DNA of 18,934 bases from Promethearchaeia archaeon (GCA_029856125.1 JAHQWJ010000124.1:1-18934); one strand, 5' to 3'. Counted from the stretch's first letter, positions 9,270 through 13,042 are shown. Made by a program: numbers and translations. The notes: generated by a model not told the origin, from the letters alone.

Positions 9270-10445
9270 ATTAAAATTGCATATGCAGATAGGATTAACA
9301 AGCTCCCAGGATATATTTTCGCAGAAATTGAGCAATTAATTAATGAAAAGAAAAAGGAAGGAGTAGACATCATCCCATTAGGGATTGGTGACCCGGATTT
9401 AACGACTCCAGATATGATTATTAATGAACTAATTAAGCAAGTAAAAATTCCCGAAAATCAAAATTATCCCTCCAGTAAGGGAGAACAAGACTTCAGAGAA
9501 GCTGTACAGAAGTGGTATGAAGTCAGATTTAATTTAAAATTTGATGCTAACGATGAAGTAACTAGCCTAATAGGAGGAAAGGAGGGTGTAGCTAATATCG
9601 CTAGGGTGTTTATCAATCCCGGAGATATAGTATTGTGTCCTAACCCCGGTTATCCCGTATATGAAAATGGTGCCACTAAATTATGTGATGGAAAAATTCA
9701 TACGATTCCTTTGCTAAGAGAAAACGATTTTTTACCAGATTTTGAAATTATTGAAAGCAATATCTTAAAAAAAGCTAAATTAATGTATTTAAATTACCCA
9801 AATAATCCTACTGGTGCAATCGCAACAAAAAAATTTCTAAAAGAGGCCGTAGATAACGCTGAGGATTATAATTTCATCATTGTTTATGACAATCCGTATT
9901 CAGAATTCACGTACGAGGATTATATAGCTCCATCGCTTTTGCAGATAGATCAGAATCACATAGAAATTAATAGCTCTTCAAAAATGTTTTGTATGACGGG
10001 ATTTAGGTGCGGATGGGCAGTGGGGGATAAGGATATTATTAGTGGGTTAAGGAAGGTTAAGTCTCACATTGATTCGGGATGCCCAGTTTTTATTCAAAAA
10101 GCAGTGATAAAAGGTTTAAATGAATATAAATCGGGAGAAAAACCTAATATCGTGAGAGATAATGTAAAAATATATGAAAAAAGGCGTGATGTTTTAGTAA
10201 ACGGCCTCAATGATATCGGCTGGCCCACGGACAAGCCTAAAGCGACATTTTTCGTCTGGACCCACATACCGGAAGGAGAAACAAATAGCATGGAGTTCAT
10301 TAAAAAATTAATTAATGAGGGCGTTGTCTTAACTCCCGGCACGGGCTTTGGCACTTATGGAGAGGGTTATGTTAGATTTGCATTAACTCAACCAGTTGAT
10401 AAAATAAATGAAGCATTAGAAAGAATAGAAAGAATTCTCAATTAG
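9270..10445 (+). CDS. dapL: LL-diaminopimelate aminotransferase-like class I/II PLP aminotransferase
   Basis: Frame extends upstream of ATG 9414 with the conserved N-terminus ADRINKLPGYIFAEIE...GVDIIPLGIGDPD..TP. Also GGKEG, NYPNNPTG, YDNPY, SSSKMFCMTGFRCG (PLP Lys), GEGYVRFAL. Substrate assignment is by motif resemblance only. Confidence 0.75.
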   Translation: MKIAYADRINKLPGYIFAEIEQLINEKKKEGVDIIPLGIGDPDLTTPDMIINELIKQVKIPENQNYPSSKGEQDFREAVQKWYEVRFNLKFDANDEVTSLIGGKEGVANIARVFINPGDIVLCPNPGYPVYENGATKLCDGKIHTIPLLRENDFLPDFEIIESNILKKAKLMYLNYPNNPTGAIATKKFLKEAVDNAEDYNFIIVYDNPYSEFTYEDYIAPSLLQIDQNHIEINSSSKMFCMTGFRCGWAVGDKDIISGLRKVKSHIDSGCPVFIQKAVIKGLNEYKSGEKPNIVRDNVKIYEKRRDVLVNGLNDIGWPTDKPKATFFVWTHIPEGETNSMEFIKKLINEGVVLTPGTGFGTYGEGYVRFALTQPVDKINEALERIERILN

Positions 10446-10462
10446 GATGCCTTATGTTTAGA

Positions 10463-10669
10463 CTATTTCTTAATAGATTTTCTTTCCCACCAATCATTAT
10501 CTTTATTAATTTCTTCCTCAACTTCAATTTCTCCTGGAACCCAGTTTGAACAATCTAGATATTTCCAAAAAGTATTTTCATTAACGTATGGATTTTCTTC
10601 CTTTATGGGAATAATATTACTTTCGATTATAATCTGACTTTCAATTTTTTCCAGAACTCGTTTTTCCAT
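10463..10669 (-). CDS. Small hypothetical protein A (68 aa), paralog of 11114-11290
   Basis: GGAGGTGA ribosome-binding site at 10674-10681; shares D-x-S-x3-PG-x-IE-x-E with the neighbouring small ORF. Confidence 0.75.
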   Translation of the reverse strand: MEKRVLEKIESQIIIESNIIPIKEENPYVNENTFWKYLDCSNWVPGEIEVEEEINKDNDWWERKSIKK

Positions 10670-10674
10670 TATCT

Positions 10675-10797
10675 CACCTCCAATTTTTTTTACTTTTCCT
10701 GAGGTGCCGGATTCCGCGATGATCTCGATTTAATTATATTAATTTCTTTGATGAGAGAGCAAATTAAAAAGAAGATCGAAAGGGATCGGCTCTCATC
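10675..10797 (-). promoter_or_regulatory. Putative attenuator/RNA switch, unit A
   Basis: Helix 1:3 (10790-10797 with 10750-10757), alternative helix 2:4 (10762-10790 with 10706-10735), and anti-SD CACCTC (10701-10706) complementary to GAGGTG (10675-10680). Confidence 0.6.
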
Positions 10798-10889
10798 TAT
10801 AATAATAATACTACTACTACTACTACAACGCCTAATAGAAGGCTGATAACTTTTACATATGAAAATTTAGTAGTATTATTTGAGATCAT
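10797..10889 (-). CDS. Putative leader peptide A, MISNNTTKFSYVKVISLLLGVVVVVVVLLL (30 aa)
   Basis: ATG about 24 nt downstream of TTTAAATA (leaderless spacing). GTT-(GTA)6-(TTA)3-TAG run ends exactly at the hairpin. Confidence 0.65.
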   Translation of the reverse strand: MISNNTTKFSYVKVISLLLGVVVVVVVLLL

Positions 10890-10912
10890 AAGAATAAATA
10901 AAAAAGTGAGGC

Positions 10913-10920
10913 TATTTAAA
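10913..10920 (-). promoter_or_regulatory. TATA box for unit A
   Basis: TTTAAATA on the minus strand preceded by purine-rich BRE-like AAATGAAACA. Confidence 0.55.
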
Positions 10921-11088
10921 TGTTTCATTTTTTATCCCCATTTTATAAAAAATCATATGAATATAATGAATTTAATATTATGACTTCTAAACTCTTTTAA
11001 AACTGACTATCTATCAATTAAATTAACCTAGAAGCCTTAAGAATATAGATTCTCCAAAATCTTATCGTTCAGAACCAATAAATAATAG

Positions 11089-11113
11089 AAAATAAAAAAT
11101 TGAAAAAAAATAA
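11089..11113 (-). terminator. T-rich terminator after small protein B
   Basis: Minus strand shows consecutive T8 and T5 tracts immediately after the stop at 11114. Confidence 0.5.
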
Positions 11114-11290
11114 TTATTTAGACAGTTTTTTGTATTTTTGTCTCAGATAAGCCATTTTACTTTGGTCCTCGCTTTCAATTTTACCAGGATAAGCATCTGA
11201 AATATCAAAAGACATCATTATGGGAGCTAGATCAGAACTCCAATCTTGATAATACTCCAATATTGATTCAGGACCTATTTTTTCAGCCAA
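11114..11290 (-). CDS. Small hypothetical protein B (58 aa from TTG 11290), paralog of 10463-10669
   Basis: GGAGGTGA at 11299-11306 lies inside the ORF-track start region and 8 nt before in-frame TTG 11290; shared motif FDISDAYPGKIESE. Confidence 0.72.
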   Translation of the reverse strand: MAEKIGPESILEYYQDWSSDLAPIMMSFDISDAYPGKIESEDQSKMAYLRQKYKKLSK

Positions 11291-11439
11291 TTCTCTTTTC
11301 ACCTCCATTCTTTTTTTTAGAATTTACGGCGAGAATTAAGCCCTTATTCCTCTTTTTTCTTAATAATTGAAAGGTTTTTTACTCAGAGAATAAATCCAAA
11401 AAATTATAAGAAAAAGAGAGAAAAAAGGATTTATTCTCT
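11285..11439 (-). promoter_or_regulatory. Putative attenuator/RNA switch, unit B
   Basis: Perfect 13-bp inverted repeat (11427-11439 / 11385-11397) around a U-rich loop; alternative ~26-bp helix (11402-11429 / 11341-11368); hairpin 11285-11342 covering the SD and TTG start. Confidence 0.65.
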
Positions 11440-11529
11440 TCATAATACTGTTACTAAGGGAATAATATTAAAGGCCTTCTTCGTACATTGGCCAACCCAT
11501 GAACCAGTATTATGCCGTGAGAAATTCAT
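11440..11529 (-). CDS. Putative leader peptide B, MNFSRHNTGSWVGQCTKKAFNIIPLVTVL (29 aa)
   Basis: ATG about 27 nt after TTTATTAG; stop TGA directly abuts the 13-bp hairpin; same length and position as leader A. Confidence 0.55.
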   Translation of the reverse strand: MNFSRHNTGSWVGQCTKKAFNIIPLVTVL

Positions 11530-11719
11530 TAATTATATGCATAAAGTAAATACATACTAATAAATATTGTGGGTGTTAATTCCCATTTGTTTGAGTATTT
11601 GAAAAATCTTTGACAATAGCGTAAATAATTTTATTCAATAACTCTTTAAACTCATTAAACATTACCACAGATATTATATCACTAATAGATATAATTTACT
11701 TAATTAACATTAGAGAATA

Positions 11720-13042
11720 ATGAAAAGTAAAATAGTTTTAATAGGAGCGGGTAGCACCTCTTTTGGGCCTTCTACTTTGTTGGACCTTTTTCAGAGTGAA
11801 TTTTTGGATGGATCAACGATTATATTACACGACATCGATAAAGAACACCTAAATATAATTTATGATTTAATTATAACTGAAAACAAAATCCACAACGATA
11901 AATTTATTATTGAGCAAACCACCAACCGTAGAGAAGCATTAAAGGGTGCAGATTTCATTATAAGTTCCATTGAAGTAGGAGATCGGTATAAATTGTGGAG
12001 AGAAGATTACGAAATTCCAAGAAAGTATGGCTCAAAACAAATTTTAGGCGAATGTGGTGGTCCAGGGGGAACTATGCATGCTTTTAGAATAATCCCACCT
12101 ATTGTGGACATTGTGAAAGATGTAGAAGATTTATGTCCAAACGCTTTATTCATAAATTTTTCTAATCCTATGGCTAGAGTATGTTTGGCCATCAAAAGAA
12201 GCGCGCCAAATCTTAAAACTATTGGACTATGTCACCAAATTGGAGCTCTTACGTTCCATTTACCCCAAATACTTAATACAAACTTTGCGAATTTAAAGTT
12301 AAAACCTTATGGATTAAATCACTTTGGATTTTTAATGGGGGTTGAGGAAATCTCTTCTGGAATTGATTTAATGCCGAAATTTAACAAGGTCGCCCCAGAG
12401 TATTTTAGGCAACACGAAGAAAGGTTCGAGTTTTCTTCTTTAACCTTTGAAGTTTTTAAAAGATTTGACTATTTTCCGTACGTAGGGGATAATCACCTTG
12501 GAGAATATTTACAATTTAGTGAGGAATTTACTGAAACACAAGATATGGTAGATTGGATTGATTTTACTGACAAGGTTGGCAAAAGGACTTATAAACGCGT
12601 GATGAGAAATCATAAGCGTCTAAAAGAAGGGAGATATTTTAAAAAAGGAATGTTCTATAAAGGATCATCCGGAGAAAGAGCAATTCCGATAATCGAAGCA
12701 ATTATTTCAGACAGTAATTCGTATGAAAGCGCTGTCAACATTCCAAATAATGGAATTATCGATAATTTACCGCAAGATTTGATTATTGAGTGTCCAGTAA
12801 CAGTTAGTAAAGCAGGTATTCACGGAGTTAAATGGGGAAATTTACCGAAAAATATCGCAGCCCTTCTAAGAATTGAAGCGAGTATCCAGGATCTATGTGT
12901 TGAAGCGATCCTTACAAAATCTAAGGAAGCAGCAATTAATGCATTAGCTATAGATCCTAATGTTGGGAGTTTTGAGATAGCTGAAAGTATATTCAACGAG
13001 ATGAAAGAATTACAGAGTGAATTTTTACCCAAATTTCAATAA
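11720..13042 (+). CDS. Family 4 glycoside hydrolase (NAD+/Mn2+-dependent alpha-galactosidase/alpha-glucosidase, MelA-like)
   Basis: IGAGSTSF Rossmann motif, GECGGPGG, NFSNP, GLCH, GLNHF, N.G.I.NLP. Confidence 0.9.
   Translation: MKSKIVLIGAGSTSFGPSTLLDLFQSEFLDGSTIILHDIDKEHLNIIYDLIITENKIHNDKFIIEQTTNRREALKGADFIISSIEVGDRYKLWREDYEIPRKYGSKQILGECGGPGGTMHAFRIIPPIVDIVKDVEDLCPNALFINFSNPMARVCLAIKRSAPNLKTIGLCHQIGALTFHLPQILNTNFANLKLKPYGLNHFGFLMGVEEISSGIDLMPKFNKVAPEYFRQHEERFEFSSLTFEVFKRFDYFPYVGDNHLGEYLQFSEEFTETQDMVDWIDFTDKVGKRTYKRVMRNHKRLKEGRYFKKGMFYKGSSGERAIPIIEAIISDSNSYESAVNIPNNGIIDNLPQDLIIECPVTVSKAGIHGVKWGNLPKNIAALLRIEASIQDLCVEAILTKSKEAAINALAIDPNVGSFEIAESIFNEMKELQSEFLPKFQ

Follow-up and report, generated by a model that had tools for sequence, protein, structure and literature searches.

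In the window studied here, an entire contig of 18.9 kb with approximately 31% GC, two units on the minus strand each combine a short upstream open reading frame (uORF), a set of competing RNA helices that co-vary among homologs, and a small downstream ORF, and in the wider set of such leaders the type of codon at the end of the uORF matches the class of the gene that follows. The reading that we consider probable, even though appreciable doubt attaches to it, is that both units are cis-acting leaders belonging to a single RNA family, which occurs in one family of Lokiarchaeia, and that each functions as a ribosome-mediated attenuator sensing branched-chain amino acids. In such a leader, pausing of the ribosome would decide between the helices, and the helix formed would in turn set the output.

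The named homologs of the window genes come from Lokiarchaeota/Promethearchaeota metagenome bins, and both leader units are located between two genes of the opposite strand:

11720-13042, plus strand: glycoside hydrolase family 4 (GH4) gene, divergent neighbour of the leader units
9414-10445, plus strand: aminotransferase gene resembling LL-diaminopimelate aminotransferase, convergent neighbour of the leader units

This order of divergent GH4 gene, leader-microprotein cassette and convergent aminotransferase gene is kept across the genus and in at least four genera (loci L064-L081). For the aminotransferase at 9414-10445 (plus strand), the match to LL-diaminopimelate aminotransferase profiles begins only at about profile position 47, and the true start of the gene is probably further upstream or at a non-ATG codon. 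The elements of unit B are the following:

11557-11585, minus strand: promoter, with a TGGG-N8-CCCA palindrome (11585-11570) and a TATA-like TTTATTAG (11564-11557), present in all orthologs
11440-11529, minus strand: uORF of 29 codons, MNFSRHNT..IIPLVTVL, with ATG at 11529 and TGA at 11442-11440, the stop adjoining segment 1
11514-11527, minus strand: 5' strand of helix P0 (uORF nt 3-16), partner 11330-11320, from the cognate versus non-cognate duplex test
11320-11330, minus strand: 3' strand of P0, GCCGUAAAUUC, from the same test
11441-11514, minus strand: helix P1, CAUAAUACUG (11514-11505) with CAGUAUUAUG (11450-11441), from RNAalifold and pair counts
11493-11490 with 11476-11473, minus strand: hairpin P3 inside P1, GGCC with GGCC, with compensatory changes
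11427-11439, minus strand: segment 1, AGAGAAUAAAUCC, perfect 13-bp complement of 11397-11385
11398-11426, minus strand: segment 2, pyrimidine/U-tract loop (U6, U5, U6), pairing with segment 4
11385-11397, minus strand: segment 3, GGAUUUAUUCUCU, pairing with segment 1 (1:3)
11368-11341, minus strand: segment 4, purine tract, 25 pairs with segment 2
11340-11331, minus strand: segment 5, CUUAAUUCUC, resembling segment 3 and pairing with segment 1, from pair counts for state II (1:5 + 2:4)
11306-11299, minus strand: SD GGAGGUGA, 5' of the pB small ORF
11114-11306, minus strand: span of the SD and the pB small ORF, with a probable TTG start at 11290 and the stop at 11114

The TTG start of pB is based on the G020 clade, in which an ATG is found at the position of this codon and an in-frame TGA upstream of it. 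The start codon thus varies by clade among the window (11288-11308) and its orthologs (loci L033-L040); in clades 4-6 an ACG is seen 6-7 nt past GGAGGUG where G017 has an ATG, and this ACG may be a near-cognate start. Directly after the pB stop codon, T8 and T6 runs (11114-11135, minus strand) look like an archaeal oligo-T terminator, and units B and A are therefore probably separate transcripts. Unit A is made up of these elements:

10912-10920, minus strand: TATA-like TTTAAATAG, aligning with the unit B promoter at equal spacing to the uORF ATG
10797-10889, minus strand: uORF of 30 codons, MISNNTTKFSYVKVISLLLG V7 L3 and stop, with ATG at 10889 and TAG at 10799-10797
10800-10880, minus strand: helix P1, AAUAAUACUACUA (10880-10868) with a (GUA)n(UUA)n run (10826-10800), from MFE folds
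10797-10790, minus strand: segment 1, GAUGAGAG, 8 bp with segment 3
10789-10761, minus strand: segment 2, able to pair with 10735-10706
10757-10750, minus strand: segment 3, CUCUCAUC, 8 bp with segment 1
10706-10735, minus strand: segment 4, pairing with segment 2
10706-10701, minus strand: anti-SD CACCUC
10681-10674, minus strand: SD GGAGGUGA
10669-10463, minus strand: pA small ORF, conserved in congeners

The unit A uORF is open in 6/6 orthologs, with 26-30 codons and a TAG or TAA stop that adjoins segment 1. We did not accept a longer ORF beginning MKHLNS, with its ATG at 10928, as the leader ORF: the TATA-like element, which aligns with the promoter of unit B, lies downstream of this ATG, and what looks like a conserved "MKHLNS" is in fact promoter DNA. 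In the window, segment 3 of unit A is 11-12 nt shorter than in five orthologs, whose 1:3 helix has approximately 14 bp, the GAGAUCAU block of segment 4 has the 5' end of the uORF as an alternative pairing partner, and model ensembles show an SD that is largely base-paired (unpaired probability of 0.10-0.27). Several congeners (G007, G011, G133, G095) carry in-frame stop codons in the pA paralog, and within parts of the genus the pA / unit A copy seems to be undergoing decay. Directly 5' of the TATA box, every leader has a TGGGAA-N8-CCCA or TGGG motif (11570-11585 in unit B, 10931-10940 in unit A); it could be a transcription-factor site and, in unit B, lies in the intergenic region that this unit has in common with the divergent GH4 gene.

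By sequence comparison, units A and B are paralogs: a unit-A profile matches unit B (E = 6e-4), and a single covariance model matches both. An earlier interpretation of this DNA (the sequence-only reading), which had taken the retention of topology without sequence identity as an argument for function, loses that argument through the paralogy of the units. Both follow the same order, with TGGG..CCCA or TGGG, a TATA-like box, approximately 30 nt, the ATG, P1 and segments 1-5, and then, after segment 5, an A-rich spacer, GGAGGUGA and a small ORF of roughly 60 aa; the long-range helix P0 is a further part of each. Segment 2 is U-rich in both, a linker follows segment 3, segment 4 is purine-rich and segment 5 is like segment 3. 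Across genera, CUUUUUCUU in segment 2 is the best-conserved loop block.

All four helices that the sequence-only reading had proposed, namely 1:3 and 2:4 in both units, are present at the positions claimed. In unit B, the 1:3 helix is a perfect 13 bp (11439-11427 with 11397-11385) and 2:4, given as about 26 bp, has 25 pairs (11426-11398 with 11368-11341); in unit A, the 8-bp 1:3 helix was confirmed, and 10789-10761 can indeed pair with 10735-10706. Nor are comparable helices common in shuffled controls, for which 2000 dinucleotide-preserving shuffles were cut at the same coordinates. The unit B values of -16.3 kcal/mol for 1:3 and -21.3 kcal/mol for 2:4 were reached by 0/2000 shuffles in either case, while in unit A the 1:3 value (-10.5 kcal/mol) was reached by 0/2000, the 2:4 value alone (-16.4 kcal/mol) by 24/2000, and both together by 0/2000. 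The z-score of the whole-leader fold is -3.2 in unit B and -1.9 in unit A.

Covariation in homologs, which the same reading had asked for, was found for 1:3 as well as for 2:4 extended by 1:5. The share of paired cells in the 1:3 helix is 91.9%, compared to 40-60% when the partner columns are slid, and the pair types include UA, UG and CG at one position and AGCGAA/UUCGCU in genus g21 (RNAduplex). Where MAFFT registers differ between genera, column counts for P1, P0 and 2:4 were replaced by duplex tests that need no alignment. With 16 cluster representatives, cognate 2:4 duplexes gave -18.7 kcal/mol against -14.1 kcal/mol for non-cognate ones (permutation p = 5e-5), and for state II (1:5 + 2:4) in 19 congeners 85.9% of cells are paired and 35 cells are changed on both sides, neither value being reached by any of 500 shuffles. 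P1 shows an 8:8 exchange between G-C and A-U at one pair and P3 shows compensatory changes (RNAalifold and pair counts). P0, a long-range helix between uORF nt 3-16 and the nucleotides that immediately follow segment 5, is favoured in cognate combinations (-7.9 versus -6.1 kcal/mol, permutation p = 0.003) and has a compensatory change in G050. RNAalifold had also proposed that the 5' end of the uORF pairs with the SD; this was rejected, as cognate combinations had no advantage (p = 0.57). Taken together, the support for P0, P1 and 2:4/1:5 points to a final fold in which P0, P1 and a hairpin of approximately 40 bp (2:4 + 1:5) meet at a three-way junction, the 1:3 hairpin competing with this long hairpin. 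On geometric reasoning we rejected a simultaneous 1:3 + 2:4 pseudoknot: where the loops joining them measure 0-4 nt, stems of 13 bp and about 25 bp could not both form in full.

The uORF is conserved, too. It is open over 20-32 codons in 42/42 distinct orthologous leaders from seven genera, where the +2 frame closes after 3-11 codons and the +1 frame begins on TGA in 33/42; its ATG is invariant, and indels within the genus are all multiples of 3. The stop codon is TAA in G007 versus TGA in the other genomes of the genus, and in every leader examined the stop (TGA, TAA or TAG) falls between 3 nt before and 10 nt inside segment 1. An SD motif was not found upstream of the uORF ATG, and the distance from the first T of the TATA box to this ATG is 30-37 nt in 35 of the 43 distinct upstream regions. 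Given the usual geometry of archaeal promoters, such a distance implies that the uORFs are probably leaderless. The last codons of the uORF are at the same time the 3' strand of P1, and in the pB-type uORF of genus g22 this strand is read in another frame (..IRSIIKRE, then stop), so that the Val/Leu signal is partly a by-product of the helix sequence. From genus to genus the uORFs share codon composition and stop position, but not the C-terminus of the peptide.

What the uORF may sense is best appreciated from the wider family. A covariance model (R1) of 77 positions, extending from the P1 3' strand through segment 3, matches 108/135 genomes of the Lokiarchaeial family, the HMM of the pB microprotein matches 96/134, and the leader structure is conserved and co-varying across 11 genera. 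Many genomes have a second, weaker covariance-model match at another locus, and 10 of the 12 such copies that were fetched are followed, 150-190 nt downstream, by an archaeal leucine-tRNA ligase gene (leuS). The source genome of the window has two further leaders:

G000:C126:25753-25902 (L095:453-603): leuS leader, R1 40.6 bits, with leuS at L095:658-3546
G000:C129:2979-3123 (L096): fourth leader copy, with its gene at L096:374-1843

The former has the uORF MVLKNAALMSSVKEFLQKKVLLQTLLQLLL and stop, followed by a degenerate 1:3 helix, and the gene downstream scores 929 bits with NCBIfam leuS_arch against a cut-off of 648.5. The fourth copy has an Ile-rich uORF (..LLISLSIIIVAVLIR, then stop) and precedes an FrhB/FdhB-family gene with a C-terminal TrmB-like HTH. 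Within the last 10 uORF codons, the content of branched-chain codons is as follows:

leuS leaders: Leu 6.4, Val 1.0, Ile 0.1
pA-type microprotein leaders: Leu 4.4, Val 4.4, Ile 0
pB-type microprotein leaders: Leu 1.3, Val 1.7, Ile 2.0

In the window, the unit A uORF ends in Val7-Leu3, and that of unit B in Ile-Ile-Pro-Leu-Val-Thr-Val-Leu, with 6 of the last 8 codons being Ile, Leu or Val; across pB-type leaders the enrichment is mixed, and at best modest. That the Val/Leu run might be nothing else than the P1 3' strand is partly true, based on the g22 frame, but insufficient given the class-specific codon content. Leu-rich uORFs in leaders before leuS are a signature of ribosome-mediated amino-acid sensing, and the match of codon type to downstream gene class is the strongest argument for the ribosome as the sensor. 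The pA and pB microproteins themselves had no match in Pfam, NCBIfam or (by profile search) the PDB and fell only into "hypothetical" clusters in the ESM Atlas, and an AlphaFold2 model with a mean pLDDT of 61 was too poor for structure search. The leaders had no Rfam match at the gathering score, and at E up to 10 retrieved only chance-level plant miRNA hairpins (24.5 bits at most, against gathering scores of at least 83).

The sequence-only reading had also held that a ribosome at the last leader codons would cover segment 1 and favour 2:4, and here the folding models give a divided answer. Masking of segment 1 abolishes 1:3 and, among seven leaders of other genomes in which 1:3 has an equilibrium probability of 0.5-0.9, shifts six to 2:4 (0.5-0.7), with 2:4 near zero in G087. 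The units of the window do not follow, however. At equilibrium unit B is in 2:4 with or without masking, which is the single dominant structure that the reading had itself listed as counting against it, and unit A stays in 1:3 (probability of about 0.85), with masking lifting 2:4 only to 0.2. In the growing unit B transcript, 1:3 has a probability of 0.98 once segment 3 is complete, keeps it for about 25 nt more and gives way when segment 4 has emerged, so that it is favoured only in a transcription window of approximately 30 nt. The gap between the two states in constrained ensembles ranges from -8.5 to +10.5 kcal/mol and in most cases does not exceed about 5. Of 43 leaders whose SD accessibility was modelled, 17 have a less accessible SD in the 1:3 state, 2 have a more accessible one and 24 show no difference between the states. 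A simple SD-sequestration switch was discarded, as the effect seen in constrained partition functions is inconsistent from clade to clade. No bacterial-type terminator (hairpin and U-run) was found on the minus strand of 10400-11750. The U-runs are within segment 2, upstream of segments 3 and 4 and not after a helix, and for this reason the choice between 1:3 and 2:4 cannot decide intrinsic termination there. Rather, helix choice could control whether a cleavage or termination factor reaches the U-rich loop, or could act on translation initiation; 2:4 might conceivably act by burying the U-tract.

We therefore envisage the following sequence of events. Transcription would start a few nt before the short uORF, leading to leaderless translation of an ORF whose last codons, rich in Val, Leu and Ile, form the 3' strand of P1. 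A ribosome pausing on these branched-chain codons, or at the stop, would cover segment 1, to which the uORF stop is in fact seen to be adjacent. With segment 1 covered, no local 1:3 hairpin would form as segment 3 emerges, and the RNA would fold directly to 2:4 + 1:5, whereas with the ribosome absent or already released 1:3 would form first and display the U-rich segment 2 as a loop. The two folding paths would result in different expression of the downstream small protein, possibly because the archaeal machinery would terminate transcription early or cleave the RNA at the exposed U-tracts, or because translation initiation would be altered, and the leader would hence report on the charging of Val, Leu and Ile tRNAs. 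The interpretation offered by the sequence-only reading survives in part: the conserved uORF reaching the foot of segment 1, the competing helices kept by compensatory change and the Leu-rich uORFs before leuS all argue for it, but not the retention of topology without identity, nor the outcome of masking in unit B.

Other explanations need to be weighed against this one. Chance complementarity in an AT-rich, low-complexity purine/pyrimidine sequence would be a natural suspicion, as such tracts pair promiscuously and even non-cognate combinations of segments 2 and 4 average -14 kcal/mol; it can practically be dismissed, however, and is already refuted by the cognate/non-cognate, slid-column, shuffle and pair-count tests, with 0/2000 shuffles matching and a structure that is conserved and co-varies across 11 genera. 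A further possibility, which we hold to be highly improbable, is that the uORF peptides are themselves the product, as small hydrophobic membrane peptides whose translation is tuned by the hairpins as in bacterial type I toxin messages. The mRNAs of the hok type do have long-range 5'-3' pairing and metastable hairpins, of which the leaders are reminiscent, and approximately 17 residues at the C-terminal end of the unit A peptide form a hydrophobic stretch, but the unit B peptide is not hydrophobic, the C-terminus is in different frames depending on the genus, the length of the Val/Leu run is hypervariable, and an antisense RNA feature was not found.

Two further alternatives accept the structure and dispense with amino-acid sensing. 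A bistable RNA could be switched by a protein or small ligand (its own microprotein, or a U-tract binder such as an Sm-like protein), with P1/P3 as the sensor and the uORF being incidental or serving for one-time unfolding. The compact three-way junction of P1, P3, P0 and the long hairpin, with its covariation, would suit this explanation, as would the duplication of RNA and small ORF together as one module and the weak codon enrichment in pB-type leaders. We nonetheless find it unlikely: the frame is preserved in 42/42 leaders with a stop that varies in identity and keeps its position, codon type tracks gene class with Leu-rich leaders before leuS, the P3 loop is variable in both length and sequence, and Rfam provided no match. 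Quite unlikely, too, is a folding or stability element devoid of amino-acid specificity, such as a cold- or temperature-sensitive or exonuclease-protective 5' structure of which 1:3 would be a transient co-transcriptional intermediate. States mostly within about 5 kcal/mol of each other, helices rich in AU and GU pairs, the transient preference for 1:3 in unit B and the origin of the DNA in a sediment metagenome lineage all agree with it, yet it does not account for a uORF that is conserved with its stop in a fixed position, nor for the Leu-rich versions before leuS. The ribosome-mediated attenuator, on its part, has to contend with window targets that are two microproteins without a family match and without a cognate pathway to Val, Leu or Ile, with an equilibrium winner that is 2:4 in unit B regardless of masking and 1:3 in unit A, and with an SD accessibility that differs between states in just 19/43 leaders. 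Of the features that define an attenuator, the leaders have a short leader ORF (its translation being predicted from the sequence), a codon run near the end of this ORF and exclusive helices adjoining it; an intrinsic terminator is not one of the alternatives, and curated covariance models do not place the leaders among riboswitches or Rfam cis-regulatory elements.

Leader-peptide attenuation, which depends on the coupling of transcription to translation, is among the textbook mechanisms of bacteria, and ivbL-ilvBN, ilvL-ilvGMEDA, leuL and pheM-pheST are enterobacterial leader-peptide transcription attenuators. As in those systems, the leaders described here have a short ORF that ends in a run of codons for the amino acid presumably sensed and competing helices that start from the ORF end, and one version precedes, as would befit its control, an aminoacyl-tRNA synthetase gene. 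Unlike those systems, they are archaeal, with a uORF that is probably leaderless, without a GC-rich hairpin and U-run terminator, with U-tracts in the loop of the first helix and, in the window, with microproteins lacking a family match as targets. Ribosomes that halt close to the end of a leader ORF and there remodel or mask the adjacent RNA, as proposed here, are also known from ermC and cat (translational attenuation) and from tnaC, where, with Rho in the tna operon, a termination-factor loading site beside the stop is masked. These, however, sense a drug or free tryptophan via a specific arrest peptide, whereas the C-terminus of the Asgard leader peptides is not conserved between genera. 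T-box leaders couple synthetase expression to tRNA charging via a two-state RNA, a logic analogous to that of the leuS copies, but the T-box binds uncharged tRNA directly and has no uORF, while the Asgard leaders do have one and gave no match to the Rfam T-box. The closest analogue that we retrieved, as described in its abstract, is a mycobacterial system in which cysteine-responsive leaderless polycysteine uORFs attenuate the expression of downstream genes (bioRxiv 10.1101/834739). It shares with the leaders discussed here a leaderless short ORF with a run of codons for one amino acid; it is bacterial, though, and the abstract does not describe an architecture such as the 1:3 / 2:4 / 1:5 / P0 of the Asgard leaders.

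Judged by their sequences, the leaders look like an archaeal variant of leader-peptide attenuation with a bacterial-style sensing of amino-acid supply. We know of no established case of leader-peptide attenuation in archaea, and none was found in full-text literature searches for an archaeal leader-peptide attenuator. It is a real possibility, although one that we would not yet call probable, that these leaders represent the first archaeal example of ribosome-mediated amino-acid-sensing attenuation, in which a pioneering, transcription-coupled ribosome on a leaderless uORF would pick the fold, the output would be of archaeal type (exposure of U-tracts to a termination or cleavage factor, or translation initiation) instead of a bacterial terminator, and the tandem microproteins would be effectors of a branched-chain starvation response in Asgard archaea, the closest prokaryotic relatives of eukaryotes. 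The comparative set, with more than 100 genomes and at least three gene classes with matching codon runs, makes this hypothesis directly testable. If it proves true, ribosome-based metabolite sensing would exist in the archaeal domain, the leaders would provide a natural reporter for transcription-translation coupling and for the poorly understood step of archaeal termination, and two unannotated microprotein families would be singled out as regulated effectors.
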